A DNA stretch of 64,000 nt from an uncultured Bacteroidota bacterium (GTDB lineage Bacteria > Bacteroidota > Ignavibacteria > UBA10030 > UBA6906): the NCBI GenBank assembly GCA_963734955.1, contig CAVTJO010000011.1, forward strand, positions 457,698-521,697, in the 5' to 3' direction. Position 1 is the stretch's first letter. The number at the start of each line of letters is the position of its first letter. Shown in pieces: positions 49,530-64,000 of the stretch. A program made the position numbers and the translations under genes. Below the pieces are notes generated by a model. It searched no databases. It was given only the letters and a program-made list of their open reading frames with translations, and had not been told where the DNA came from.

Positions 49530-50582
49530 TTATCCTGGCTGAATGGAGATCGGGCTGCCGTCTTTGATAAATTGCTGCCCGGTCGTGATGACGTTTTCAC
49601 CGCCGGCAAGCCCGTTGAGGATTTCGGTCCGGGAATTCTGCTCTGTGCCAAGATTCACAGGAATACGTTTCGCGGTATCATTCATCGCGACGAAGACATA
49701 CGCCCCCTTGTCATCGCTGAGAATGGCTGCCGTGGGTACGGTGATTGCATCGGGATGTTCATTAACAACGAGCGTCACCCGCGCGAACATCCCAGGCTTG
49801 AGAAGTCGATCGCGGTTCGGAACGTCAACCTCAACTGCCATCGTCCGAGTGGAGAGATCAACTGCTTCCGCAAAACGCTTCACCGTCCCGACAAACTCCC
49901 TTCCGGGATATGCATCCACGGTTACCTGCGCTTGTTTCCCTTCCTTGATAAGCGGTATGTCCTTCTCAAGCACATTGACGATAACCTTCATGGCGTTGAG
50001 ATCCATCAACATGAAGAGGGTGAGATTGTTCGCCGTAACCAATGAGCCGGGGTCAAGAGAGCGTCTCGTGATGAATCCGGAGAACGGTGCGGTAATCCGG
50101 GCATATCCCAGGCGCGTTGCTGCGAGCTCATACGCGGCTTTCGCAACTTTCGCTGCTGCATCGGCGTTGTCGATATCCTGTTTTGCAACTAGATTCTGTT
50201 CCGATAGTTCCCTGGTTCTCCGGTAGTTTACCGCAGCGTTTTCATACGTTGCAGCTGCCTGCTGGTATTGCTGGAAAAGTAGCGTGGTATCGATCAACGC
50301 GAGGGTCTGTCCCGCCTCCACCTGGGAACCAATATCAACGAACGCCCGCTCGAGATTGCCATCGACTTTGGAATAGATACTCGCCTGTCGCACAGCAACC
50401 ATATCGCCGGTAAACTGGAGTTCATACTTCACAGCCTCACGGCCGGGCTTTTGCACCTTCACCAGCGGCAATGACTGCCTGCGGCTGTCCGCCGCAGCGT
50501 TGCCCGCGAGAAATCTGTAGGCGATGTACGCGACAAAAGCGCACGCGACTGCCAACAGGATGATTCTGGTTTTCTTCGTCAT
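49530..50582 (-). CDS. RND efflux periplasmic adaptor (membrane fusion protein, HlyD/AcrA family)
   Basis: About 350 aa with an N-terminal TM (MTKKTRIILLAVACAFVAYIAY) and coiled-coil plus beta-barrel domains. It is immediately upstream of the RND pump. Confidence 0.8.
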   Translation of the reverse strand: MTKKTRIILLAVACAFVAYIAYRFLAGNAAADSRRQSLPLVKVQKPGREAVKYELQFTGDMVAVRQASIYSKVDGNLERAFVDIGSQVEAGQTLALIDTTLLFQQYQQAAATYENAAVNYRRTRELSEQNLVAKQDIDNADAAAKVAKAAYELAATRLGYARITAPFSGFITRRSLDPGSLVTANNLTLFMLMDLNAMKVIVNVLEKDIPLIKEGKQAQVTVDAYPGREFVGTVKRFAEAVDLSTRTMAVEVDVPNRDRLLKPGMFARVTLVVNEHPDAITVPTAAILSDDKGAYVFVAMNDTAKRIPVNLGTEQNSRTEILNGLAGGENVITTGQQFIKDGSPISIQPG

Positions 50583-50834
50583 GTACGGTACTTGATTATA
50601 ATGCGGTGAGAAGTGGCCCAACGCCAATCAGGCACTCAGAATGGACACGTCACGGCATTGAAGGGTTTAACGTCATTCGTCCGAAATAGCGAATTGAGGC
50701 CCTGGCCGCCGGCAAGAATATACGATAGTTCATTCTTGATTGCCATATGAACACTCTGTACAACACGGAATTCACCTGCAACATTCCCGACGTTTGCGAA
50801 TAGGCAACCTTGCAATCCTCATCATTTTCCCTTA

Positions 50835-52019
50835 TTGTATGGGTGCATGCTCACAGTGTCGGGCATCGCTGACGTTTTTCCCTCACTGCATCAACCTACG
50901 GAGCCCCTGATGGCAAAGACTGCCCCCACAGCAAGGCCAAAGGCCGGCAAGGCATCTGCACTCGACCCCCTCATCGAAAAGCTCAACTCGTTCTCAGCAG
51001 ATAACTATTGGGATCTCGGAAAGTTTCTCGTTGAAAAGCTCATCCCCATTGCACTCAAGGAGGGTATATTCGGAGAGCACATACTGAAACGGATGTCAGA
51101 TGTTCCGGGATTCAAGTTTCCGTACTCCATGCTCAGGCAGTGCCAGCAATTCTACACCTACTATCCTGATGTGCAAAAACGCCCCCTTGCGGAGATTTTC
51201 TACTTTGAGCTTGCAACAAAGGTGGATGAAACACGTGAGCGGGACCGTTACGAGAAAATGGCAATCACGTACAAATGGACGATCTCTGATCTTCAGAAAA
51301 AGATTCGCGAAGATGAGCTGGCACGGCGGGAAGACGAGAAGACAAAGTATGGATTCGACTTGAAGGAGCGCAATGTTTGGTCGTTCGATGCCCCGGATCC
51401 GCGCTTTGGAAAATCAGGTTACAAGGGAAGGCTCCCGGGGCAGATTCTTGCCAATGCGCTCTTCTATTACACCCAGCCCGGAGGGACTGTCCTCGATCCG
51501 ATGGCGGGCAGCGGGACAACCGGAGACGTGATCGCGTCAGTACCACACTTTATCAGCCACACGTGCAAGATGTACGACGCTGAGCCATCCGATTCGCGAA
51601 TCGAGCGTGCGAATATACTGCTTACCGGCATTCCGGAGCAGTCGAGCTCATTTGATTACGTGTTCCTTGATCCGCCCGCTGACTTCTATCCACGAGGCGA
51701 TGATTCCAACTTCTCTCCCGCCGCGGCCAAGGCTGAAACGCTGATGAAGTTCAAGACCATCGCGCGGGAAAGCATTCGCACTCTGAAGCCCGGCGGAAGA
51801 ACCTCCGTTATTGTTGAAGCCTCCACGGGGTCCTTCGGTGTGATTGACTTTCCCTTCGAGGTGTCACAGATCTTCCGCGAGTTGGGCTTGACACAAATCG
51901 GCAAGGTTTATCTCCCGAGACGCGGAGAAACTGCCAAGCTTCGCGCTCATGTGGACGGCCTTAAGCCAATGGCCTCCGATTGCAGGGAACTGTTGACCTT
52001 CGAGAAACCACGCGTTTGA
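50835..52019 (+). CDS. SAM-dependent amino-methyltransferase-like protein (N6/N4 DNA MTase-like motif X-I then variant motif IV 'DPPA') with uncharacterised ~185-aa N-terminal domain
   Basis: 394 aa. The stretch [34 protein letters not shown] matches motif X and motif I of PF01555-type MTases. About 45 aa later, [13 protein letters not shown] is a DPPY-like motif IV with Ala in place of the aromatic residue. The likely true start is MAKTAP, near 50910. Confidence 0.55.
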
Positions 52020-52039
52020 CAATCGGGAGGGCACGCACC

Positions 52040-52330
52040 ATGATCGAGCGAAGGAGGCTTTCCGATCTGGAAGTTGCTGATGCGCTGAAGACGTTGAATG
52101 GGTGGTCAGTCATCAGCGGAAAACTGCACAAAGAGTTCAAGTTCCAGGACTTCGCGCAGGCGTTTGGCTTCATGTCCAGCGTGGCGTTACTTGCCGAAAA
52201 GATGAACCACCACCCCGACTGGTCCAATGTGTACAGTAGAGTCGTCATCGACCTTACGACCCACGACCTCAACGGCATCAGTACCTTCGACGTTGAGTTC
52301 GCTTCAAGCGTGAACAAGCTTCTGAAATAG
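52040..52330 (+). CDS. phhB: Pterin-4a-carbinolamine dehydratase (PCD/DCoH)
   Basis: [24 protein letters not shown]...[32 protein letters not shown] is the canonical PCD sequence. The ORF-track start at 51980 is an upstream extension. Confidence 0.8.
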
Positions 52331-52453
52331 CCTCTCTCCCGATCTTCCTCCTACCATCATCACTTCATGGTGGAGAGCTGAGTCCCATCTTGCCGGTTTG
52401 ACAGGGTTCGACCCGGTTGAAGGCGGCTATGATTTCGGTCTTTGAACAACCGC

Positions 52454-53041
52454 TCAGTCTTTTGACAGCGATTCGACAAGGTTGTTGAACTCTGCTTCGC
52501 TGGCCGCGATGGTCTTTGCAGGACCCGTATACTTGAAGAACACCTCCCCTTCAGGAGCATTCACAATGGCCCCGAGAAGACGATAGTTGTCCTTCTTTCC
52601 CTGTGACTCCATCATCGGACCTGATGGTGCGAGGTACGTCCCGCCAATATGTACAAGCACCACGTTCAATCCGTTCACCTGTTTCGACGACCGATCTACG
52701 GCTCCGGGGTTTTCGAACTGATTCACCCAGCGGTCTATGTTCTGGTCCACGTCACCACCCTGACCGCTGCCGAAGTAGAATATCGCACACTCTCCACCTT
52801 CCGCGTCTCCTTCTGCTGCAGGAACCGTGTATGTAGCGATGCGCATTTGACGGGGTGGCTGATCCTCCCAGCGGTCGGGCCGCTTCCAATGAATCCCTGC
52901 AATCGAATTCACATCGTGAGCCGATACAACACCCGGACCCTGCAGAGGCACCTGGTTCGCCGGCGCGGGTGGTTTCTTGTTGCACGCTGATGTTGCCACG
53001 AGTCCCACGACAATGAGCGTCCGCATCAGACCGGTTTTCAT
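52454..53041 (-). CDS. Lipoprotein, hypothetical
   Basis: 195 aa with a lipoprotein signal and lipobox (LIVVGLVATSAC). Confidence 0.5.
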   Translation of the reverse strand: MKTGLMRTLIVVGLVATSACNKKPPAPANQVPLQGPGVVSAHDVNSIAGIHWKRPDRWEDQPPRQMRIATYTVPAAEGDAEGGECAIFYFGSGQGGDVDQNIDRWVNQFENPGAVDRSSKQVNGLNVVLVHIGGTYLAPSGPMMESQGKKDNYRLLGAIVNAPEGEVFFKYTGPAKTIAASEAEFNNLVESLSKD

Positions 53042-53080
53042 TTCTCTCTCCTCATATGATTGTTCATGTTCATGACTAAA

Positions 53081-54034
53081 TTAGAATTGTAACGAAATGC
53101 TCAGGCCATCGCCACGGGCCATTGCGATCGGGGCGAGACTGAGTTTCACCTCGCCTGGATCCCCGACCTTGCCCGTGTCAAACGGATGCGATACGATTCG
53201 GCCAAATGTGTATCCCAGTGCCATCCCCAATGGCAAATCACTGTACCAATGCCAGCCCTTGTTTACCAATCCGATCCCCACGAGTCCCGTGAGTGCATAT
53301 CCCACCGGTTTCATCCACACGAGCTCGGGGTAATTCTCAGAGAGGACAGTCAAAGTCGCCGTCGTCGTGGCAATATGGCCTGAAGGGAAAGCATAGTACT
53401 TCGACTGATGCCTGTCATACGTCTTGAGACTTGGAAAGGGCCTCCACGTGCCTCGCCTGGAGCTGGCAACGCCCGGACTCTCGCGACCGGCAAGATGCTT
53501 GAACGTCTGGACCACAAGACCCGTTACAACCAGGGCTTCCAACGTCTGACTTGCCACCCGGAGCGCACGATGATCCGAAGCAACAAAACCGTAGAGACCA
53601 AACAATCCTGTTACGGCCAGATCCGACCTTCCATCCCCAAGCAAAACAAAGAAGTCTGAGCAGGACGAAACGGTCCTCGATCTTTTGCTGAACCCGCTGG
53701 AGACCTTGTACATGTTGGCGTCGGCAACCACGAGACCAACTGTCAGCCCCGATAGACCTGCGAGTACAGGAATGTTCTTGGGATCGATTGAAATTGAAGC
53801 AAAGTGTTCAAGATCATTCGGCACATTCCCCACAAAGTCGTACCAACGGGGAAGAGATTGATGCTCTCTCAGATTTGACAGCGTGAGTGAATCACTCGAA
53901 CCAGGTGGGACCAGGAAACTCACATCAAACGTCTTCAACCCTCTTTCCTGCGCGATCAGGATGCCGTCTTGAACCCAAACCAAGAAGACCATTACGGCAA
54001 ATGCTTTTCCTGAGAACATGTTCACTCTGGACAT
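53081..54034 (-). CDS. PAP2-like (phosphatidic acid phosphatase type 2 superfamily) secreted/membrane protein, paralog 1
   Basis: 317 aa with a signal peptide. PAP2-like motifs are FKHLAGRESP, FPSGH and HWYSD. It ends in ...SISLQF, a C-terminal Phe. Confidence 0.5.
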   Translation of the reverse strand: MSRVNMFSGKAFAVMVFLVWVQDGILIAQERGLKTFDVSFLVPPGSSDSLTLSNLREHQSLPRWYDFVGNVPNDLEHFASISIDPKNIPVLAGLSGLTVGLVVADANMYKVSSGFSKRSRTVSSCSDFFVLLGDGRSDLAVTGLFGLYGFVASDHRALRVASQTLEALVVTGLVVQTFKHLAGRESPGVASSRRGTWRPFPSLKTYDRHQSKYYAFPSGHIATTTATLTVLSENYPELVWMKPVGYALTGLVGIGLVNKGWHWYSDLPLGMALGYTFGRIVSHPFDTGKVGDPGEVKLSLAPIAMARGDGLSISLQF

Positions 54035-54040
54035 ACGATT

Positions 54041-54985
54041 TCAAAACTCCATGGACAGAGAGAGCCCGTTACCGATGCGGTTAACCATGGGAGAAAAAGT
54101 CAGTTTTGGCCCATGACCAACGTCGCTCACACCAACACCTTCTCCTTGAGGGTGTGCAACGAGAACACCAAATGAATAGCCGAGCGCAATCCCCAGCGGA
54201 TAATCACTATACCAGTGAATGCCGGTGTTGCCCATTGCCACACCAAGAAGCCCAACGAGTGAGTACCCAACCGGTCGAATCCAGCCAACTTCTTCATAGT
54301 TCTCGGCAATCACCGTCACAGTTGCCAGCGCGGTGGCAACGTGTCCTGACGGGTACGCATCATAATGCGGGACATGTTTGTGGTACTCGATTTGGTTCGG
54401 GAAGAGACGCCACTTGCCGCCCGGCGCAGTGGAAACAAACGGACTTTCCCTTCCGGTCAAATGCTTCAGAACTTGAACAACAGTCCCGCAGGCAAGGATC
54501 ACTTCCACGGTTTGGCTCGCAGTGCGAAGTGCCCTGCTGTCTCTGGCAGCGAACCCATAAACACCAAATGCAGCAGCCAGCCCAAACTGTGTCTTTCCAT
54601 CGCCGAACATCTCACAAATATCACTCGCCTTTTCGATGGTCCGTGAGCTCCTATACCACTTGTCAGATGCCGTCCATGTCGCATCATCCAGAGAAACGAG
54701 GGCAACCGTCGAAATTGTGAGTCCGAGAAACAACGGAATATTTCTCGCTGTAAACGCCCCTTCACTCCAATGTACCCAATCACGAGGGATGTTGACAAAC
54801 ATATCATACCATTGAGGGACCAACCGGGCGTCGCTGGTAGATGTAGAGGAATCGGCGGGAGGGGCTGATGTTGCCAAAGTTACTGGCGTAACAAGAGTCG
54901 AACCTTCACGCGCCACCAAAAGTTGGGGAACGTGAAGAAGGATTATCAGAAAGGAAACCGAGAACAGGTGATGATTACGAAGCAC
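54041..54985 (-). CDS. PAP2-like protein, tandem paralog 2
   Basis: 314 aa, collinear with 53081..54034. Motifs are LKHLTGRESP, YPSGH and HWYSD, and it ends ...SLSMEF. Confidence 0.5.
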   Translation of the reverse strand: MLRNHHLFSVSFLIILLHVPQLLVAREGSTLVTPVTLATSAPPADSSTSTSDARLVPQWYDMFVNIPRDWVHWSEGAFTARNIPLFLGLTISTVALVSLDDATWTASDKWYRSSRTIEKASDICEMFGDGKTQFGLAAAFGVYGFAARDSRALRTASQTVEVILACGTVVQVLKHLTGRESPFVSTAPGGKWRLFPNQIEYHKHVPHYDAYPSGHVATALATVTVIAENYEEVGWIRPVGYSLVGLLGVAMGNTGIHWYSDYPLGIALGYSFGVLVAHPQGEGVGVSDVGHGPKLTFSPMVNRIGNGLSLSMEF

Positions 54986-55557
54986 TCGCTTTAACAGGGC
55001 ATAATGTTCCTGCAGCCACGCACGGAAATCCTTCGATCAAACCCCGAGGTCGGTACGTCATCATCCGTGCCAGAAAATGATGTTCATTGTAACATATTCG
55101 GGAATGTTTATCAAGGGCACAAGAAACGCAAATGCGCTGGCACAACACAGAGAGCTCCAGGCCGGCTACAAGCACTCGGTAAAACTTCAAAGGATCACCC
55201 CTGTGATTACCCGCCGTACTGACAAAGAAGCCCCATCGCTAATCCGAGCCTGGCAATCAAGAGCAAGTTGGTTTCCTCTTTATTCAATGAACATCGGAAA
55301 CAGTCTGAATCGTTCCTCCGGTAACCCTCGGTGTGCGAGCCTACGTTTGACGTTCGAACTTCTTCACCAAATCATGGTAACGCATGGAGCATTGCCCGGC
55401 ATTAGTTCTGGAACAGGCGTGAGCGTCTGCGCTACAAATAAGCCGAGCTTTGGTAGTGAGGTTGAGGGGCATTCTCCTGGAGTGAAACTGAGGAGTGTGG
55501 GCCGCGCAGTGCCAGGGCGAGAGGATACGGGACGACCTTGACAGCAATCATAAACCA

Positions 55558-55947
55558 TTAGTTGTTGGTCACGACAGCAGTGCTGTCAGAAAACACGGTC
55601 ACTGTAACAGAGAGGCTTCTCCCGTCACTTCCTTTTTCGAGACCAACACCATCAAGCACAACCTGGTCGGCACTCACTGAAGTAAGGGTATACGATCCGT
55701 TGGCATTTGATGGCTTCGATGAAAGTTTCTGCATGGTGAGGCCAAGAAAAGAATTCCCTCCTCCTCCCAACACTTGCGGGCGCCGGTAATATCCCTGTGC
55801 ACGAAGGCCAAGCGCAGTAAGATCTGATGTTAGCGCGTCCCGGTTTGATGAAACAGCGTTGTCATCGAACAACGTCATCCCTATGACAACGGCTGCGCCA
55901 ATGATGATAACGCCGAGGAGAATGAGCAGTAGTTGCTGTTGTCCCAT
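55558..55947 (-). CDS. Small membrane-anchored pseudopilin-like protein; paralog of 8915..9301
   Basis: 129 aa. The N-terminal hydrophobic segment is LLLILLGVIIIGAAVVIG. It continues LTSDLTALGLRAQGYYRRP..GGGGNSF...SKPSNANGSY...VL.G.G.E.G.DG.S......DS.A...NN. Confidence 0.4.
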   Translation of the reverse strand: MGQQQLLLILLGVIIIGAAVVIGMTLFDDNAVSSNRDALTSDLTALGLRAQGYYRRPQVLGGGGNSFLGLTMQKLSSKPSNANGSYTLTSVSADQVVLDGVGLEKGSDGRSLSVTVTVFSDSTAVVTNN

Positions 55948-56474
55948 ACACTACCCCGCAACACATGGTGGAAAGAACAATTTGATGGGGGAACACTTTG
56001 AGAAATGTGGCGCAACACGGATGCCACGACAATGTGTTGGTGTAACCCCTTTGGTTTCATCGGTAGTCGAAGCCACCAGCAGCCGTGAAGAGGTATCTTT
56101 TACCCCGAGGGTGGAAGTAATTTCCGTGTTACACTGAGATTCAGTAATTTGGTTGACTCACAATTCCGCTCCCGTGATGTCGCGTACTTACCGGGAGACA
56201 GCAGGTAACTCACTCGCGGTCCTGCCCACGGTGAAGCTATCTCTCCACCCGGAAGTCACCTTGCACGGCATTATCCCTCCCTTCAAAATGAGTTGGATAA
56301 GAAGTGGAATCCGTTAAACCGTCATCGTCTCCCGCACTGAAAAGCTTGGTGTGGATTCCTCCTTTTGGATCGATTGCTTTAGCACAACAAACTGGGTACT
56401 TTCCTTCAAAGTTGTCAACCCTCACTCCGGCAAAGAGAGGACCCGACCACACACACAAGCGGCCAGTTTAAAAC

Positions 56475-57074
56475 ATGGACTCCAAATCGCCTGCACCAAA
56501 ATTCTTCTCCACTCAATCTGCTTTTCGTAAGTGGCTCGTAAAGCATCACAACACATCGTCAGAGCTCCTTGTGGGATACTACAAAACAAATTCAGGCAGG
56601 AAGAGCATCACCTGGCCTCAATCTGTCGACGAAGCTCTCTGCTTCGGCTGGATTGACGGCGTTCGCAAGTCGATCGACGATCTCAGCTACACAATTCGGT
56701 TTACCCCGCGTAGAAACAATAGTATCTGGAGTGCGGTGAATACCGGACGTGCGAAGGAGCTGATACACCTGAACTTGATGGCGCCTCCCGGACTTGAGGC
56801 GTTCAACAAGAGGGATGAAAAGAGAACTCAACGGTATTCCTTCGAGCAAAAGAACGTCAGGCTTGGGCCTGCATATGAACGCAGATTAAGAGCAAACAAA
56901 AAGGCATGGACATTCTTTCACTCTCTGGCCCCTTCAACAAGAAAACCTTCCATGTGGTGGGTCATGAGCGCCAAGAAGGAAGAAACCCAACGCAGGCGAC
57001 TTGATGTACTGATCACAGCCTCGGCACAAGGGCAACTCATACCTCCATTGAAGCTTCTCAAGAGAACACGGTAA
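56475..57074 (+). CDS. YdeI/OmpD-associated family protein (DUF1801/bacteriocin-protection like)
   Basis: 199 aa. Sequence FRKWLVKHH...ELLVGYYK...ITW..SVDEALCFGWIDG...I.FTPRR..S.WS..N and a C-terminal basic region are typical of the YdeI family. Confidence 0.55.
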   Translation: MDSKSPAPKFFSTQSAFRKWLVKHHNTSSELLVGYYKTNSGRKSITWPQSVDEALCFGWIDGVRKSIDDLSYTIRFTPRRNNSIWSAVNTGRAKELIHLNLMAPPGLEAFNKRDEKRTQRYSFEQKNVRLGPAYERRLRANKKAWTFFHSLAPSTRKPSMWWVMSAKKEETQRRRLDVLITASAQGQLIPPLKLLKRTR

Positions 57075-57078
57075 ACGC

Positions 57079-57519
57079 ATGTGGACATGTCCTAAGTGCA
57101 GGCACAAATTTGTCAACAGGAATCAATCCCATTCGTGCGGACACTACACAGTGGAAGATTTCCTGGAGGGCAAATCAGAACAGGCAACGAGGTTGTTTCA
57201 CGATTTCCTGGCAGCATACCGGACAATCGGGACATTCAAACTTCATCCCGTGAAGACGAGGATTGCCCTCATGACGAAGATGCGTTTCTGCTCAATCAAC
57301 TCAATTGGTCCGGATTACCTGGCCGGCCATCTCGTTCTACGACAATCGTACGCGAACAACCACTGCTTCTACAAAATCGATAACCTGGCTGACAAATTCT
57401 TCATCCATTACTTCAGGATTCATACAAAGAAAGACATTACGTCCGAACTCAAACGGCATATGCGGCTCGCCTATGCTGTTGGGGAGCGCAAACGCTTGAG
57501 GGGCCGCGGAACAAGCTGA
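57079..57519 (+). CDS. Zinc-ribbon-containing protein (DUF5655-like)
   Basis: 146 aa. The start MWTCPKCRHKFVNRNQSHSC is a CxxC...H.C N-terminal motif. Confidence 0.35.
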   Translation: MWTCPKCRHKFVNRNQSHSCGHYTVEDFLEGKSEQATRLFHDFLAAYRTIGTFKLHPVKTRIALMTKMRFCSINSIGPDYLAGHLVLRQSYANNHCFYKIDNLADKFFIHYFRIHTKKDITSELKRHMRLAYAVGERKRLRGRGTS

Positions 57520-57620
57520 ACTGCCGGGTTGTTTAAGGAGAGATTCCCGGAAAGAGCTCCGCCGATCCATCGGCCCGATTAGGCCTCATACGAACGAACA
57601 AAATCAACAGGGACCATTCG

Positions 57621-58127
57621 ATGAACCCTCGAATACTTGCCATTGCGCTGCTCGCGTGTACTACTGCACTGAGCGCAGGCGATAGGGAGCTCAAGCTCTA
57701 TTCTGCTGAAAAGAAAGGATTTGTAATGGTGGACAAGATTGTCAAGAGCGATGATGATTGGAAGAAACAGCTCACCCCGTTGCAGTTCGACGTCACCCGC
57801 AAGAAGGGAACCGAACGGGCATTCAGCGGAGAGTACTGGAACAACCACGAAAAGGGAATCTACAAATGCGTTTGCTGCGGAACGGATTTGTTCTCGTCGG
57901 ACACGAAGTTCGAATCAGGGACAGGCTGGCCGAGCTTCTCGCAGCCCATTGCAAAGGGGAATGTCAAGGAGGAGTCCGACAACAGTTTCTTCATGCGCCG
58001 CACGGAAGTCCTTTGCGCCCGGTGCGATGCCCACCTCGGTCACGTGTTCGACGACGGCCCCCAACCGACCGGGCTGCGATATTGCATGAACTCGGCATCG
58101 CTGAAGTTTATGAAAACGGAGAAGTGA
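57621..58127 (+). CDS. msrB: Peptide-methionine (R)-S-oxide reductase MsrB with signal peptide
   Basis: A signal peptide ([19 protein letters not shown]) is followed by the SelR domain. The two CxxC pairs are CVCCGTDLF and [16 protein letters not shown]. Confidence 0.85.
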
Positions 58128-58329
58128 TCCTTCACGAGCAAAGGTGCTCTCGAATGCAGAAGGGCAAATAGAAAAAGAAACCCATTGTGATAGTATCGGC
58201 GAAATTGTCCGTGAAGCGGGGCTGCCCGGAGAACCTTCCAGACGATGGCGGGAAGCACGCTTACCACACTCGCTCAAAAGGCTGGAAACAACAACGAGCG
58301 GGCGTTCACTATCGCAGGCTTCACACAGA

Positions 58330-59289
58330 TCAGAGTTGCAGCAGGTGGACCGCAAACCCTCCGATTTCCTTGTCAAGGTACACAGTCGCGAGCTTCCCGT
58401 TCCTTTCTGATTTCGTCTCCTCCTTTAGCCCAATACCATTCCTGGCAAAGTGGGCAACCGCCCGCTCGATAAAGTTCGTGCCGATCGCAATGTGGCCGTG
58501 AGTGCCAAGATATTGGGTCTTCAGGAATTCAAATTGACCTCCGACAAAGATGGACGAGGCTCCATCTTTGACAGGAAGATGGAGCAATTGAGAGACAAGT
58601 GATGCACCCTGAGTCGCCGCCGTCGCATCAGGATTGTTGATGCCGACATGTGTCAGCTGGAACCCGAGCATCCTGGCAACGGTTTGTCCGGCAAGCTTCT
58701 GTATCTCGTCAAAGCGCTTGTCGGCAATCATCTCTGACTTCACCATCCAGCTCCCGCCACACGCAAGCACCTTTGAGAACTTCAGGTATGGCAGGAACTT
58801 CGTCTCGTCAATCCCTCCGGTTGGAATGAACCGGATATTCTTGAACGGCGCGCTGATGGCCTTGAGATAGTCGAGCCCGCCGCTTGCTTCGGCCGGGAAG
58901 AATTTCACCACCTCCAGGCCCATCTCAATGGCCGCCTCAATCTCGGTGGGAGTTGCAACACCGGGAGTTACCACGATCCCGTTCTTCAAACAGTGTTCAA
59001 CCACCTTGCGGTTGAGTCCGGGCGACACGATGTATTTCGCTCCGCAATCGACCGCGATCTTCGCCTGATCGACGGTGAGAACAGTTCCCGCACCAAGTAA
59101 CATCGCCGGATGTTCCTTTGCAATCCGGAGCATTGCAGCTTTCGCAGCATCGGTCCGCAAGGTGACTTCCATTGTCGAGAGCCCGCCATCGAGGAGAGCC
59201 CGTGCCAGCGGCCCGGCATTCTCCTCATCGTCAATAACAACAACGGGAATGATGCCAATGAGCCCAAGTTGTTCAAGCATGGAATTCAT
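58330..59289 (-). CDS. eda: KDPG/KHG aldolase (Eda) fused to a C-terminal VOC/glyoxalase-like domain
   Basis: 319 aa. The first ~205 aa are Eda-like (GIIPVVVIDD...STMEVTLRT..A......GAGTVL...Q...A...GA.YIVSPG; catalytic Lys in EVVKFFPA). The last ~110 aa (LTHVGINNPDA...HIAIGTNFIERAVAHFARNG) resemble a VOC domain. Confidence 0.7.
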   Translation of the reverse strand: MNSMLEQLGLIGIIPVVVIDDEENAGPLARALLDGGLSTMEVTLRTDAAKAAMLRIAKEHPAMLLGAGTVLTVDQAKIAVDCGAKYIVSPGLNRKVVEHCLKNGIVVTPGVATPTEIEAAIEMGLEVVKFFPAEASGGLDYLKAISAPFKNIRFIPTGGIDETKFLPYLKFSKVLACGGSWMVKSEMIADKRFDEIQKLAGQTVARMLGFQLTHVGINNPDATAATQGASLVSQLLHLPVKDGASSIFVGGQFEFLKTQYLGTHGHIAIGTNFIERAVAHFARNGIGLKEETKSERNGKLATVYLDKEIGGFAVHLLQL

Positions 59290-59301
59290 CGCTTTTGTCC
59301 G

Positions 59302-60756
59302 TCAGACAACATATGCCGTGGACGCCGTATCACCGCCGCGACCCGTCCAGTTGGTATGGAAGAACTGGCCGCGAGGTTTGTCAATCCGCTCGTATTGATG
59401 AGCACCGAAAAAGTCCCGCTGCGCCTGCAGGAGATTTGCCGGAAGCCGGGCGTTACGATAGCCGTCAAAGTAGTTCAGCGCCGTTGAGAATGCAGGTATC
59501 CACACACCATTGGTAACCGCCGCCGAGATCACCCGTCGCCATGCAGCCTGCGAGGCTTCGATTCTCTCTTTGAAGTATGGGTCAAGCAGCAGGTTTGCGA
59601 GCTTGGGATTCCTGTCAAAGGCCTCCTTGATCTTCCCGAGGAACGCCGACCTGATGATGCACCCGCCGCGCCACATCATGGCCACGCCGCCGTAGTTCAG
59701 GTTCCATTTGAATTCCGCCGCTGCAGCATGCATTAGTGTAAAACCTTGCGCATACGATACTATCTTCGATGCGTACAATGCGTGCTCCAGATCCTGCAGG
59801 AGAGCGGTCTTGTCGCCTTTGAAGATTTCCTTCGGACCGCTCAACACCTTCGCAGCGGCCACCCGGTCTTCCTTGATGGCGGAAAGGCAACGGGCAAACA
59901 CCGCCTCGCTGATGAGTGTGAGGGGAATACCAAGATCCAGCGAAGTGACACTCGTCCATTTTCCGGTTCCCTTCTGCCCTGCCGTATCAAGGATATTGTC
60001 AACCAGTGGTTTGCCGTCCGTGTCTTTGAACGCAAGGATATCTCGCGTGATCTCAATGAGATAGCTGTCGAGGATGCCCGTGTTCCACTTCTTGAACACC
60101 TCATGCATCTCTGTCGCGCTCATGCCAAGCAGCTCTTTCATTATCTGGTAGGCCTCGCAGATGAGCTGCATGTCGCCGTACTCAATGCCGTTGTGCACCA
60201 TCTTCACGAAATGTCCGGCGCCGTTCTCTCCCACCCAGTCACAGCATGGCGTGCCATCGGCGACCTTGGCGGCAATGGACTGGAAGATCGGTTTCACATG
60301 AGGCCATGCTGCAGGTGACCCGCCCGGCATAATTGACGGGCCGTTCAATGCTCCTTCTTCGCCTCCGGAAACACCTGTTCCAATGAAGAGCAGGCCCTTG
60401 CTCTCGAGATATTTCGTCCGACGCATGGTATCGGGGTAGTGGGAATTCCCACCGTCGATGATAATGTCTCCTTTCTGAAGATGCGGGACCAGCAGCTCGA
60501 TGAATTCATCGACCGGATCGCCCGCTTTCACCATCAGCATTACCTTCCGTGGCGACTTCAGTGCCGCGACCAGAGCCTCGATCGAATGAGTACCGATGAT
60601 CATCTTCCCCTTTGCGCGTCCGCTGATAAAGTGATCGACTTTAGCCACCGTGCGATTGAAGACCGCAACCCTAAAACCGTGGTTTGCCATGTTCAGCACA
60701 AGGTTTTCACCCATCACAGCCAGACCAACAAGGCCGATATCCGCTCTCTCTTGCAT
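59302..60756 (-). CDS. gnd: 6-phosphogluconate dehydrogenase, decarboxylating
   Basis: 484 aa. The N-terminal NAD(P)-binding site is [22 protein letters not shown]. Conserved motifs include [11 protein letters not shown] and [12 protein letters not shown]. Confidence 0.9.
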
Positions 60757-60823
60757 GTCTACCGTCTCTCTCTCAAGTAGTTGTTATAGAATTGATGTGT
60801 TCGGAACGACATCACGTTGCACT

Positions 60824-61933
60824 TCATCGCTTGATCCTCGCGCTGCCGCCTTTCATTACGTGCATCGTTTCCTCCATTGTCACCATGCTTGTATCACCCC
60901 GCGTGGTCTGGAGCAAGGCACCATGCGCGGCTCCGAGCTCGACACATTCCTGCGGGGTCATTCCATGCAGGAGGCCGTAGATGACACCACTGCAGAATCC
61001 ATCCCCGCCACCCACGCGGTCCTCAATCTCGAGGTCCATGTATTTCCTCGACTGATGAAATGAACCGCCGTAAAACATGATCGCCGACCAGTTATTGACC
61101 AGCCCGCTGACAACCTCTCGCAACGTCGTGCCGACCGCATGTATGTTCGGGTATGTCTTCACGACCTTCTTTACCATCTTCTGGTAACCTTCAACCGAAA
61201 GCTGTTTCAGACTTTCGTCCGCCCCTTCGACTTCAAACCCGAGGACCTTCTGAAAGTCTTCCTCATTGCCAATGAGAACATCGATGAAAGGAACGAGTTT
61301 CCTCGTGACCTCAATGGCCTTCTTGCTTGTCCAGAGCTTGCTCCGGAAATTCAGATCATAGCTCACAATTGCCCCGTGGTCGTGAGCGGCCTTCATCGAT
61401 TGAAAAGCAACATCCGCACACGAATCGCTGAGCGCCGTGAAGATTCCGCCTGTATGGAACCAACGGACTCTTCGCCTGGAAAAGACGCTCTGCCAGTCCA
61501 CATCCCCTGGTTTCATGTGTGCGATGGCGGTGTGTCCTCTATCGTAAAGAGTCACACTTGCACGCACTCCGATTCCAACCTCTGTAAAATTCAGTCCGAT
61601 CCTGTCCGTCCGGCCGCTGCCATCATACGGCACCCACACCACTTCGCTTATATCCATGCCACTTCCCTTGGCATGATTGCGGATAAAGTGACCGAGGGGA
61701 TTATCCACAAGCCGCGAGACCCAGCCAGTCCGCATTCCGTATCGCGCAAGTGCATACGCGACATTGTATTCGCCACCACCCGCATATGCTTCAAACACCG
61801 GTGTCAGATCAATACGCTGGTGACCGGGAGGGCTGAGGCGAATCATGCACTCACCAAGAGCCAGCAAGTCAAATTCACACTCAGATGCGGGTCGAATTGT
61901 CAGCGCCATGCTATTTGTCAGTTTGGTGGGCAA
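60824..61933 (-). CDS. PfkB-family sugar(-acid) kinase, 2-dehydro-3-deoxygluconokinase-like
   Basis: 369 aa. The ribokinase-family ATP/anion-hole motif is DRVGGGDGFCSGVIYGLL. The N-terminal substrate lid is GGGEYNVAYALARYG. Confidence 0.7.
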   Translation of the reverse strand: MPTKLTNSMALTIRPASECEFDLLALGECMIRLSPPGHQRIDLTPVFEAYAGGGEYNVAYALARYGMRTGWVSRLVDNPLGHFIRNHAKGSGMDISEVVWVPYDGSGRTDRIGLNFTEVGIGVRASVTLYDRGHTAIAHMKPGDVDWQSVFSRRRVRWFHTGGIFTALSDSCADVAFQSMKAAHDHGAIVSYDLNFRSKLWTSKKAIEVTRKLVPFIDVLIGNEEDFQKVLGFEVEGADESLKQLSVEGYQKMVKKVVKTYPNIHAVGTTLREVVSGLVNNWSAIMFYGGSFHQSRKYMDLEIEDRVGGGDGFCSGVIYGLLHGMTPQECVELGAAHGALLQTTRGDTSMVTMEETMHVMKGGSARIKR

Positions 61934-61990
61934 GGGTATCCTGCTTGATCATCTCAAACGTCCGGAAGGGTTGATGTCATCGCGTGTATC

Positions 61991-63112
61991 CTACCGCTGA
62001 ATGCGCGCTGATCCACCTTTTGCAAATGCCCACACCTGATCGACTGTCGCCATCGTCGTGTCGCCAGGGAATGTCGTGAGCAGCGCACCATGGGCCCAGC
62101 CAAGTTTCACGGAGTCATCGGGGGTTTCACCCGCCAGCAGCCCATAGAAGAGCCCGCTGGCAAATCCATCACCTCCACCGACTCGATCCAGAACTTGCAG
62201 TTCACACGTCGGCGCGACATACGTCTTCCCTTCAATCCATGCCACCGCACTCCAACTATGGCTGTGCGTCGAGTGAACTTCACGCAGCGTCGTTGCTATT
62301 ACCTTCACTCCGGGATGCTTCGCGACCACGCGTTCAATCATCCCAAGAAAGGTGCTAGGATCCAGTTTCGACTTTGATGCCACTTCGGGACCCGGGATAC
62401 CAAGCCCCTTCTGCAAATCCTCTTCGTTGCCGACCAATACGTCTGCATTGTCAACGATACGGGCTATGACCTCAACGGCTCTCTTTTGTCCCCCCCAGAT
62501 ATTCCACAGTTTCTCCCTGAAATTCAAATCGAAACTCACGATCGCGCCAGCCCGCTTTGCTGCTTTCATTCCTTCAATAATAAGTCCGCCGGTCGTTTCA
62601 GACAATGCTGCAAAAATCCCCCCACTATGGAACCAGCGGACACCGTTCGAGAAGATCGCGTTCCAATCAAAGTCCCCGGGCTTCAATTGCGCGGCAGCTT
62701 CATTCGAACGGTTGTAGAACACCACAGGTGCCCGCACACCGTAGCCACGGTCACTGTAGACCGCGGCCATGTTCGGGCCGTTCACACCATTGTGCTTGAA
62801 CCGTCTGTAAAACGGTTTCACACCCATTGCCTTCACCCGCTCGGCAATCAAGTCACCAATGGGGTATTCAACCAACGCGGTCGCGATTCCTGTATTCAGG
62901 CCAAAGCAGTCAGCCAAATTCGCCGCGACGTTGTACTCACCACCGCTCACGTGAATTTGACATTCGGTTGCTTTTCGAAATGGAATTATCCCCGGATCAA
63001 GACGGTGCACCAGTGCACCAAGCGAAACGAGATCCAGAGATCCCTCCGTACGAGTCTTCAAACCAGTCATAATTGGTCGACCCTTTCTCTCTCGTGAGTC
63101 TGTCCTTGTCAA
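61991..63112 (-). CDS. PfkB-family sugar(-acid) kinase, tandem paralog
   Basis: 373 aa, collinear with 60824..61933. Motifs are SGGEYNVAANLADCFG and DRVGGGDGFASGLFYGLL. Confidence 0.7.
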   Translation of the reverse strand: MTRTDSRERKGRPIMTGLKTRTEGSLDLVSLGALVHRLDPGIIPFRKATECQIHVSGGEYNVAANLADCFGLNTGIATALVEYPIGDLIAERVKAMGVKPFYRRFKHNGVNGPNMAAVYSDRGYGVRAPVVFYNRSNEAAAQLKPGDFDWNAIFSNGVRWFHSGGIFAALSETTGGLIIEGMKAAKRAGAIVSFDLNFREKLWNIWGGQKRAVEVIARIVDNADVLVGNEEDLQKGLGIPGPEVASKSKLDPSTFLGMIERVVAKHPGVKVIATTLREVHSTHSHSWSAVAWIEGKTYVAPTCELQVLDRVGGGDGFASGLFYGLLAGETPDDSVKLGWAHGALLTTFPGDTTMATVDQVWAFAKGGSARIQR

Positions 63113-64000
63113 TTCCGAAGCCTGTAAAGCACCTGTCCGGCATTCTCAACCACAAGCATCTCGTCATCCTGCTCCATTCGCAGCCTCTCAAGATCGATGG
63201 TGCCGGGGTCACGATAACCCAGGTTCACCCTCTTGCATATCTCCTCGGGAATTGAGGTTGCCAGAGTGACAGAAATGCGCGGGTGTTCTGTACCATGGTC
63301 GAACGTGCCGATTCCCTTCACGTTGGTTGAGTGGGCAAGGATGAGCCTGGACTCACTCGAGAACTTCTCCCATTGCTTGACAAAAAAATCCTTTACATGA
63401 TACCCCACACGATTGATCGCCTCACCGTGGGTAAGGGAAAGCTCGCGGATGTGGGGACCATAGATGATCACCTCGCCCCCTTCCGCGACAACGGGCTCGA
63501 GTTTGTACATCGCCTTGCCGGCAACCCAGATGTCGTCATAGATTTCCGGGGTGACACCAACGATCTTCCGGTAGGGTCGCTCAAGGTATTTGATATGAAG
63601 CTTCGCAGAGTAATCGGCTGCCAACGACCATGCCGTCTTCGGTTCCCCAACAAATAGACACGCGAGTCGATGACGTTCGTCCACCGCAAATGCAAAGCAG
63701 ATCCTGGGAGTCTCGAGGAATGTTGCCGCCCTGTCAATGACTCTGCGTGTGGGCGTATCCTTCACACCGTTGACCACCGGATTTGTGATCACAGCTGCAA
63801 GCCAATGAAACGCTTCGATGAGATCGATACCGCCGATGCCGGGAAAGAAATACTTGTTTCCTCCGGCGAACCCCATTGCCTCATGAGGTACAACCGGTGA
63901 CACAATCAGAATGTAATCGTATTCTGTTGCCTTCCTGTTGATCGTGATATTGATATCCTGATCGAACAACCCATCCGTGAGTTTCGAGATCTCACTACCC
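63109..64000 (-). CDS. LarA-like (DUF2088 / nickel-pincer-dependent racemase-epimerase family) protein, 5' end probably beyond window
   Basis: At least 286 aa are visible, including HEAMGFAGGNKYFFPG and HPRISV. The reading frame stays open to the window end, so the true start is likely upstream of 64000. It is translationally coupled to the kinase gene. The family assignment is tentative. Confidence 0.35.
   Translation of the reverse strand, partial: GSEISKLTDGLFDQDINITINRKATEYDYILIVSPVVPHEAMGFAGGNKYFFPGIGGIDLIEAFHWLAAVITNPVVNGVKDTPTRRVIDRAATFLETPRICFAFAVDERHRLACLFVGEPKTAWSLAADYSAKLHIKYLERPYRKIVGVTPEIYDDIWVAGKAMYKLEPVVAEGGEVIIYGPHIRELSLTHGEAINRVGYHVKDFFVKQWEKFSSESRLILAHSTNVKGIGTFDHGTEHPRISVTLATSIPEEICKRVNLGYRDPGTIDLERLRMEQDDEMLVVENAGQVLYRLRN

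Follow-up and report, generated by a model that had tools for sequence, protein, structure and literature searches.

A LarA-family gene, gnd and two PfkB kinases in a putative pectin/hexuronate operon of an uncultured Ignavibacteria bacterium

The last 5.7 kb of the stretch of DNA analyzed here (the window, 64,000 nucleotides from contig CAVTJO010000011.1 of an uncultured Bacteroidota bacterium of the Ignavibacteria) are filled by five co-directional open reading frames (ORFs) of the minus strand (58330-64000). These encode a LarA-family protein, two paralogous PfkB-type sugar kinases, which we call K-A and K-B, the 6-phosphogluconate dehydrogenase Gnd and a fusion protein with an Eda aldolase domain. 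Which sugar acid does such an assembly act upon, and what are the two kinases doing beside Gnd and Eda? An earlier note, made from the letters of the sequence, had recognized these five genes, and hidden Markov model matches, with scores well outside what chance would produce, bear out both their identity and their placement on this strand. It further proposed that an aldonic acid, such as mannonate or idonate, is epimerized before being phosphorylated. We used sequence comparison and the gene neighborhoods of relatives to address these questions. We regard the region 58330-64000 as the probable distal half of an operon for pectin/hexuronate breakdown in which two branches meet, one leading from mannonate via gluconate to Gnd and the other from 2-keto-3-deoxygluconate (KDG) to Eda.

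A LarA homolog of the GntE type

The LarA-family gene (63109-64000, minus strand) runs off the end of the window: 296 codons and the stop codon (63109-63111) are present, covering residues ~124-419 of 419 (~70%), while the ~123 codons at the 5' end of the gene fall outside it. As a full-length stand-in we used P0001, its best database homolog, a protein of 419 aa that is 91% identical. At least 7,998 homologs, nearly all of ~419 aa, are found in the database, where they are annotated as 'DUF2088' or 'lactate racemase domain-containing' proteins. Both the window fragment (38.7 bits) and P0001 (70.7 bits) score above the cutoff of 23.3 for the Lar_N domain (PF09861/DUF2088). The LarA_C domain, which the earlier note had named as a check, gave no Pfam match even for full-length P0001, with a scan at E <= 0.01 recovering Lar_N only. 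Nevertheless, the C-terminal half of P0001 can be aligned over its entire length with GntE2 of Thermotoga maritima (PDB 4NAR), a protein with the LarA fold. The two are 37.7% identical across residues 21-417 (254 bits, E = 4e-74), and the window fragment shows 36% identity to 4NAR over 308 aa. P0001 scores only 30 bits against Lactobacillus plantarum LarA and 30-46 bits against true lactate racemases; we accordingly rejected the possibility that this protein is a lactate racemase proper.

The equivalents of the functional residues of LarA were located by combining alignments of P0001 with the residue lists of PMC7583248. LarA D72, R75, H108, H174, K184, H200 and K298 correspond to D43, R46, H77, H162, K172, H188 and K285, and all seven are invariant in 32 homologs. 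The first three (D72 and H108 being catalytic residues and R75 a cofactor-binding one) fall in the N-terminal part that lies beyond the window and are seen in homologs, including P0001, whereas the other four can be read on the minus strand of the window itself. The catalytic His (codon 63883-63885; LarA H174, GntE2 H154) is followed by Glu-Ala in place of E155-S156 of GntE2, the cofactor-tethering Lys (63853-63855) is equivalent to LarA K184 and GntE2 K164, and the nickel-ligand His (63805-63807) to LarA H200 and GntE2 H180. The catalytic Lys (63514-63516; LarA K298) lies in a W-x-A-G-K motif, with the preceding Gly equivalent to GntE2 G286. Among the substrate-recognition positions of GntE2, E155 and G286 are thus kept as E163 and G284, and Ser156 is replaced by Ala164. 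Also present, as W281, is the Trp of helix alpha-11 that PMC7583248 gives as a signature of groups 18-20 of the LarA homologs (LarAH). The GntE signature for substrate recognition thus agrees in part only: it asks for E-(V/S) behind the catalytic His, where the window clade has E-A, and for a small residue in helix alpha-14, where Leu stands opposite N348 of GntE2. The assignment to the LarA family therefore holds, given the Lar_N score, the presence of the tethering Lys, the nickel-ligand His and the catalytic His and Lys, and the end-to-end alignment with GntE2.

Assignment to a group within the family is a different matter. The NCBIfam model NF052594, the 'nickel-dependent putative hexonate epimerase', represents LarAH group 18 of Desguin et al. 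2020 and has a cutoff of 500 bits; it is the one relevant NCBIfam model and gives the best NCBIfam match of the window fragment. The window fragment scores 126 bits, P0001 156 bits and GntE2 187 bits, as against 675 bits for a true group-18 protein from one of the metagenomic loci described below (L128). Membership of group 18 was rejected on these scores, which also lead us to set the window clade apart from that group. Judged by sequence comparison, the window protein belongs to a large uncharacterized clade that is related to GntE2 and distinct from group 18.

GntE2 (TM0442, also LarAH20) interconverts D-mannonate and D-gluconate in vitro with the nickel-pincer cofactor (PMC7583248), turning over unphosphorylated mannonate with a kcat of ~200 per second. 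Members of the window clade share with it full-length homology, the catalytic and cofactor-binding residues and a part of the substrate-recognition positions, and differ from it in overall sequence, as the identity of 37.7% indicates. The gene at 63109-64000 most likely encodes a GntE-type, nickel-pincer nucleotide-dependent D-mannonate/D-gluconate 2-epimerase.

Conserved neighborhoods and the predicted pathway

The genes upstream of the LarA homolog can be seen in the contig that carries P0001 (L001, 111 kb); its synteny with the window extends from the LarA gene past msrB, with 82-88% nucleotide identity. The gene order in L001 is a GH28 polygalacturonase, a pectinesterase, UxaC, a KduD-type short-chain dehydrogenase/reductase (SDR), KduI, UxaE, an MFS transporter, a second SDR, a PdxB-like dehydrogenase, LarA, K-A, K-B, Gnd and Eda. 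The second SDR scores 381 bits with the NCBIfam model for D-mannonate oxidoreductase, above its cutoff of 281, and stays below the cutoff of the gluconate 5-dehydrogenase model (183 bits, cutoff 279).

This association extends far beyond the close relatives. When one genome was scanned for each species, carriers of the LarA clade were found in at least 597 species; they include Ignavibacteria, Bacteroidota, KSB1, Myxococcota (Myxococcales), Acidobacteriota, Chloroflexota, Hydrogenedentota and Planctomycetota. In 85 LarA-anchored loci, many of which lie on short contigs so that the counts are lower bounds, the D-mannonate oxidoreductase SDR is present in 59, Gnd in 50, UxaE in 38, UxaC and the PdxB-like dehydrogenase in 31 each, K-A in 29 and K-B in 17. 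The association of SDR, LarA, kinase and Gnd recurs in at least ten phyla and in many gene orders. Among the unassigned neighbors in these loci there is no recurrent family of mannonate or altronate dehydratases.

True group-18 proteins (L128:11090-12376, and also in L087, L109, L137 and L156), which are 26-30% identical to the window clade, are likewise found beside an SDR, K-A and Gnd, in the order SDR, K-A, LarA, Gnd; thus, two distinct LarA clades share the same partner genes. This agrees with the published context of group 18, which lists SDRs (36%), Gnd (32%) and ribokinase-family kinases (16%) along with MFS transporters, UxaC and KduI (PMC7583248, supplementary table). Despite their separation in sequence, the two clades apparently have the same putative function.

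Taken in this context, the products of the window and its relatives can be arranged in a predicted pathway. In the first branch, UxaC would isomerize galacturonate or glucuronate, UxaE would epimerize tagaturonate to fructuronate, and the SDR of the D-mannonate oxidoreductase type would reduce fructuronate to D-mannonate, the genes for these three steps being those seen in relatives. The LarA/GntE enzyme would then invert C2 of D-mannonate to give D-gluconate, presumably by proton-coupled hydride transfer to the nickel-pincer nucleotide with a transient 2-keto intermediate. K-A would phosphorylate C6 of gluconate, and Gnd would convert the resulting 6-phosphogluconate to ribulose-5-phosphate and CO2. 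Such a branch would bypass the dehydratase route of UxuA and UxaA, and its reductase and Gnd steps would cancel out in redox terms. In the second branch, unsaturated uronates would be converted to KDG by KduI and KduD, again encoded in relatives, followed by phosphorylation of KDG by K-B and cleavage of the product by Eda. The proposal of aldonate epimerization ahead of phosphorylation is thereby upheld for mannonate to gluconate, with support from the neighborhood and from PMC3750489 and PMC7583248; idonate finds no support. The substrate, which the earlier note had called undefined, can be narrowed to D-mannonate derived from galacturonate, as we infer from UxaC, UxaE and the SDR in relatives together with Gnd.

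Two kinds of loci add to this picture. In several phyla, the PdxB-like gene (L001:8829-10013) sits between the D-mannonate oxidoreductase and LarA genes, and in L001 its 3' end reaches 13 nt into the beginning of the LarA gene. It combines the 2-Hacid_dh and DUF3410 domains and scores 393 bits against NF001309 (cutoff 434). Its recurrence between the same two genes led us to reject the idea that it is a chance housekeeping neighbor. In Chloroflexota, Hydrogenedentota and Planctomycetota, a LarA-Gnd module occurs without PfkB kinases (loci including L045, L046, L050, L054, L060, L061, L068, L071, L072, L084 and L085). Such loci carry a gene similar to pyrophosphate-dependent phosphofructokinase (NF010675, 366 bits; 20 loci) and one for a ~300-aa HAD hydrolase (25 loci). 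Since fructuronate resembles fructose-6-phosphate, these two genes may constitute an alternative phosphorylation system.

Two kinases with different partners

K-A (61991-63070, minus strand; PF00294, E = 6.7e-16) and K-B (60824-61909, minus strand; PF00294, E = 6.5e-27) are 42% identical and fall into two separate ortholog clades. K-B is the closer of the two to T. maritima KdgK (PDB 2AFB), with 243 bits and 39.4% identity as against 158 bits and 31.9% for K-A. This difference is also apparent at 56 discriminating positions, defined as invariant within each clade and different between them and read against T. maritima KdgK as the sole reference, with no ligand complex: K-B retains the KdgK residue at 21 of them and K-A at 7. 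The changes in K-A are concentrated in two places, the strand at the N terminus and the lid, the latter of which forms the sugar site. The motifs of catalysis (GNEED and GGGD) and those that face the carboxylate (Y-x-R and DLNxR) are retained. KDG- and 2-keto-3-deoxygalactonate (KDGal)-type models are among the best NCBIfam matches of both kinases, all below cutoff; K-B, for instance, falls short of the KDG-kinase equivalog cutoffs (191 vs 440). The public NCBI name for these proteins is simply 'sugar kinase'.

The partners of the two kinases differ as well. Eda, KduI or KduD is present in 11 of 17 loci with K-B but in only 3 of 22 with K-A alone. K-B resembles KdgK, and its predicted substrate is KDG. 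In a metagenome scan anchored on K-A, which yielded at least 592 relatives, we kept the best 80 loci, with kinases 76-87% identical to the window K-A; the commonest arrangement in these is Gnd followed by K-A. Pairs of Gnd and K-A (~80% identical to that of the window) also stand amid housekeeping genes with no LarA gene nearby (L092, L096, L108 and L149). One further locus, again with no LarA gene nearby, has a cluster of Gnd, K-A, transketolase and transaldolase/phosphoglucose isomerase (L164:196-8291), which suggests a general entry of gluconate into the pentose-phosphate pathway. As Gnd is the constant partner of K-A, we argue that the product of K-A is 6-phosphogluconate, i.e. that K-A is a PfkB-type gluconokinase, a role assigned from genomic context only. 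K-A is thus most likely a diverged KdgK-like paralog acting as an aldonate 6-kinase that feeds Gnd, a predicted gluconokinase in place of the FGGY-type GntK. The earlier description of both kinases as KdgK-like is thereby refined: K-B resembles KdgK and goes with Eda, whereas K-A forms a diverged clade and goes with Gnd.

The known gluconokinases (EC 2.7.1.12) belong to the P-loop GntK/IdnK and FGGY families. K-A matches neither GntK nor FGGY models in Pfam and NCBIfam scans and is a PfkB protein, and we found neither a PfkB-type gluconokinase nor an identified mannonate kinase in the searchable literature. On balance we lean toward the view that K-A is the founding member of a third family of gluconokinases, one of the PfkB type that has Gnd as its partner in many phyla.

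The other two genes of the cluster are more readily identified. Gnd (59302-60756, minus strand, 484 aa), a decarboxylating 6-phosphogluconate dehydrogenase of the NADP-dependent kind, scores 774 bits against TIGR00873 (cutoff 427) and has both PF00393 and PF03446 domains. The Eda fusion (58330-59289, minus strand, 319 aa; PF01081, 216 bits; TIGR01182, 242 bits against a cutoff of 156) has a KDPG/KHG aldolase domain at aa 3-208, which matches PDB 4E38 with 185 bits over aa 3-205. The C-terminal extension of ~115 aa (58333-58677, minus strand) gives a Glyoxalase/VOC Pfam score of 18.3 bits, below the threshold of 20.6, and no PDB sequence match. L001 has the same 319-aa fusion; in other relatives, L002 for example, Eda is a separate protein of 216 aa.

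The starts of the kinase genes bear on how the cluster is read. The lengths of ~370 aa reported earlier correspond to the longest, TTG-started ORFs (61991-63112 for K-A and 60824-61933 for K-B). However, N-terminal conservation begins at ATG 63070 for K-A and ATG 61909 for K-B, and the stretch between the LarA stop and K-A is an indel between the window and L001; on these grounds we set the starts at the two ATGs. The kinases then have 359 aa (K-A) and 361 aa (K-B), and gene calls on homologous contigs likewise give 359-361 aa. With this, the proposed translational coupling of LarA and K-A loses its support: a 4-nt overlap exists only with TTG 63112, and the gap from the LarA stop to the ATG of K-A is 38 nt, compared with 150 nt in L001. 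The successive gaps, from LarA to K-A, K-A to K-B, K-B to gnd and gnd to eda, are 38, 81, 67 and 12 nt, and promoter-like and terminator-like matches in 57900-64000 occur at chance level only. Together these make a single operon of the five genes plausible but not more, and their co-transcription is to be understood in this sense. An Rfam scan of 50000-64000 found nothing. Synteny with L001 persists 3' of eda (56354-58125, ~81% nucleotide identity), so that the end of the putative operon at eda is a conserved boundary. This downstream region contains msrB (57621-58127, plus strand) and two small ORFs, of whose L001 counterparts one has no Pfam hit and the other is a DUF8412/OmdA protein. Further away on the minus strand are tandem paralogous ORFs of 317 and 314 aa (53081-54034 and 54041-54985) with PSGH and HWYSD motifs, which, going by their translations only, presumably recall PAP2-type phosphatases.

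Alternative readings and known hexuronate routes

Several observations weigh against the pathway as drawn above. Both the LarA clade and K-A are known from sequence alone, and the upstream genes (uxaC, uxaE and the SDR) are seen in relatives, not in the window. P0001 scores 156 bits where the hexonate-epimerase model requires 500 and is only 38% identical to GntE2, and N348 of helix alpha-14 of GntE2 aligns with an invariant Leu in the window clade. Among K-A-anchored loci with >=3 kb on each side, 9 of 24 have neither Gnd nor LarA within 6 kb, and ten LarA loci carry K-B only. The PdxB-like dehydrogenase has no role in the proposed scheme. The cofactor genes larB, larC and larE were not found within the 64-kb window, a statement about the window and not the genome, in agreement with the earlier note. 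The check, by motif and by tblastn, was a weak one: neither a PP-loop (SGGxDS) ORF nor a PurE/LarB-like or LarE-like tblastn match was found in the window or the 85 loci. Finally, the Km values that have been published for GntE enzymes with D-mannonate lie between 9 and 120 mM. In view of such high values, the enzyme could have a related or phosphorylated compound as its physiological substrate.

The last point leads to the alternative that survives best, namely the opposite order of steps, in which K-A would act first, as a D-mannonate 6-kinase, and the LarA homolog would follow as a 6-phosphomannonate 2-epimerase, together delivering 6-phosphogluconate to Gnd. Extracts of Lactobacillus suebicus convert mannonate to 6-phosphomannonate only with ATP, and interconvert 6-phosphomannonate and 6-phosphogluconate; this organism expresses a GntE homolog, and the genes for its kinase and epimerase steps have not been identified (PMC6978723). 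Such a sequence of reactions is thus demonstrated, and it would sit well with the high Km of the characterized GntE enzymes for free mannonate and with the PdxB-like gene, whose family acts on phosphorylated 2-hydroxy acids, lying between oxidoreductase and LarA in the 31 loci mentioned above. In the other direction, the pairs of Gnd and K-A that lack a LarA gene, and the cluster in which these are joined by transketolase and transaldolase/phosphoglucose isomerase, fit a kinase that makes 6-phosphogluconate directly, and GntE2, the closest characterized homolog, turns over unphosphorylated mannonate with the kcat given above. We consider the kinase-first order unlikely. Marginally more doubtful still is its extended form, in which the LarA clade is the 6-phosphomannonate 2-epimerase of the L. 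suebicus route, K-A its mannonate kinase and the PdxB-like protein an enzyme acting on the same 6-phospho-aldonates; as an example, it would recapture 2-keto-6-phosphogluconate leaking from the nickel-pincer enzyme. If true, this would define a branch of the LarA superfamily with phosphorylated substrates and an accessory enzyme of its own. To us K-A as a PfkB-type gluconokinase, toward which the evidence tips slightly, appears considerably more likely.

Alternatively, the LarA homolog might epimerize another 2-hydroxy sugar acid, such as fructuronate to 5-keto-D-gluconate, L-gulonate/L-idonate or altronate/allonate, with the SDR completing the formation of gluconate. Fructuronate is 5-dehydro-D-mannonate, and its C2 epimer would therefore be 5-ketogluconate, a chemical argument of our own to which may be added the 183 bits of the SDR on the gluconate 5-dehydrogenase model. 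The native substrate of GntE1 (group 19) is also suspected by its authors to be a different one. Yet the SDR fails the cutoff of that model and passes that for D-mannonate oxidoreductase, GntE2 and LarAH15 do use mannonate, and Gnd would still be served by gluconate or 6-phosphogluconate as the end result; we regard this alternative as quite improbable. That the adjacency is meaningless, with redundant KDG/KDGal kinases for Eda, a housekeeping gnd and an unrelated lactate or hydroxy-acid racemase, is highly improbable: it could draw on the KDG/KDGal-type models among the best, sub-cutoff matches of both kinases and on the bare public labels 'sugar kinase' and 'DUF2088 domain-containing protein', but is contradicted by the recurrence of SDR, LarA, kinase and Gnd across at least ten phyla in varied orders, by the 30 bits to lactate racemase against 254 to GntE2 and by the clearly different partners of K-A and K-B.

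If the epimerase-first pathway is accepted, its type is already known. The operon aldH-pelB-gnd-uxaRED-gntEK of T. maritima (PMC3750489) belongs to the UxaR regulon, and its UxaD is an SDR fructuronate reductase. By analogy, the window cluster follows the same uxaE-uxaD-gntE-gntK-gnd logic, and the chemistry would be the same throughout, with UxaC, UxaE, an SDR fructuronate reductase, a LarA-type C2 epimerase, a kinase and Gnd. The kinases differ: LarAH group 20, that of Thermotoga, occurs with an SDR and a COG1070 sugar kinase of the pentulose/hexulose type (PMC7583248, supplementary table), whereas a KdgK-derived PfkB kinase is found here. In the window, unlike in T. maritima, KdgK and Eda are joined into the same putative operon, relatives of the cluster carry the additional PdxB-like dehydrogenase, and the hosts are mesophilic, uncultured Ignavibacteria/Bacteroidota-like bacteria. 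The new elements are therefore modest, namely the PfkB-type kinase in place of the COG1070 kinase, the joined KdgK/Eda branch and the extra PdxB-like gene in relatives; the first of these is already hinted at by the ribokinase-family kinases of the 2020 context table for group 18, whose members pair in metagenomes with the same K-A kinase and Gnd.

Other routes offer more partial parallels. L. suebicus likewise joins UxaC, UxaE and fructuronate reductase to 6-phosphogluconate and Gnd instead of KDG, but the kinase comes first there, whereas the pairing of Gnd with K-A favors, on our inference, the epimerase first here. In the classical isomerase pathway (UxaC, UxaB/UxuB, UxaA/UxuA, KdgK and KdgA/Eda, along with KduI/KduD), K-B and Eda would be the standard terminal steps; unlike in that pathway, no mannonate or altronate dehydratase recurs here, and the aldonate would go to Gnd via epimerization. 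The 2-ketogluconate module of Pseudomonas combines KguK, a PfkB kinase, with KguD, a D-2-hydroxyacid dehydrogenase, upstream of 6-phosphogluconate. K-A and the PdxB-like gene of relatives seem to us to resemble this pair, which we take as a lead only; the PdxB-like gene is missing from most K-A loci and from the window, and no source of 2-ketogluconate is encoded.

These observations offer a specific proposed function for a very large clade (at least 7,998 proteins and at least 597 species) that has hitherto been labeled 'DUF2088' or 'lactate racemase domain-containing'. K-A becomes a candidate PfkB-type gluconokinase or mannonate kinase, and provides a handle on the genes by which L. suebicus converts mannonate to 6-phosphogluconate. 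A redox-neutral route from galacturonate to ribulose-5-phosphate is also of interest for the engineering of pectin fermentation. More generally, the nickel-dependent route from galacturonate to pentose phosphate described in Thermotoga appears to be common in uncultured pectin degraders, and its spread has implications for the flux of carbon and the demand for nickel in soils and sediments.

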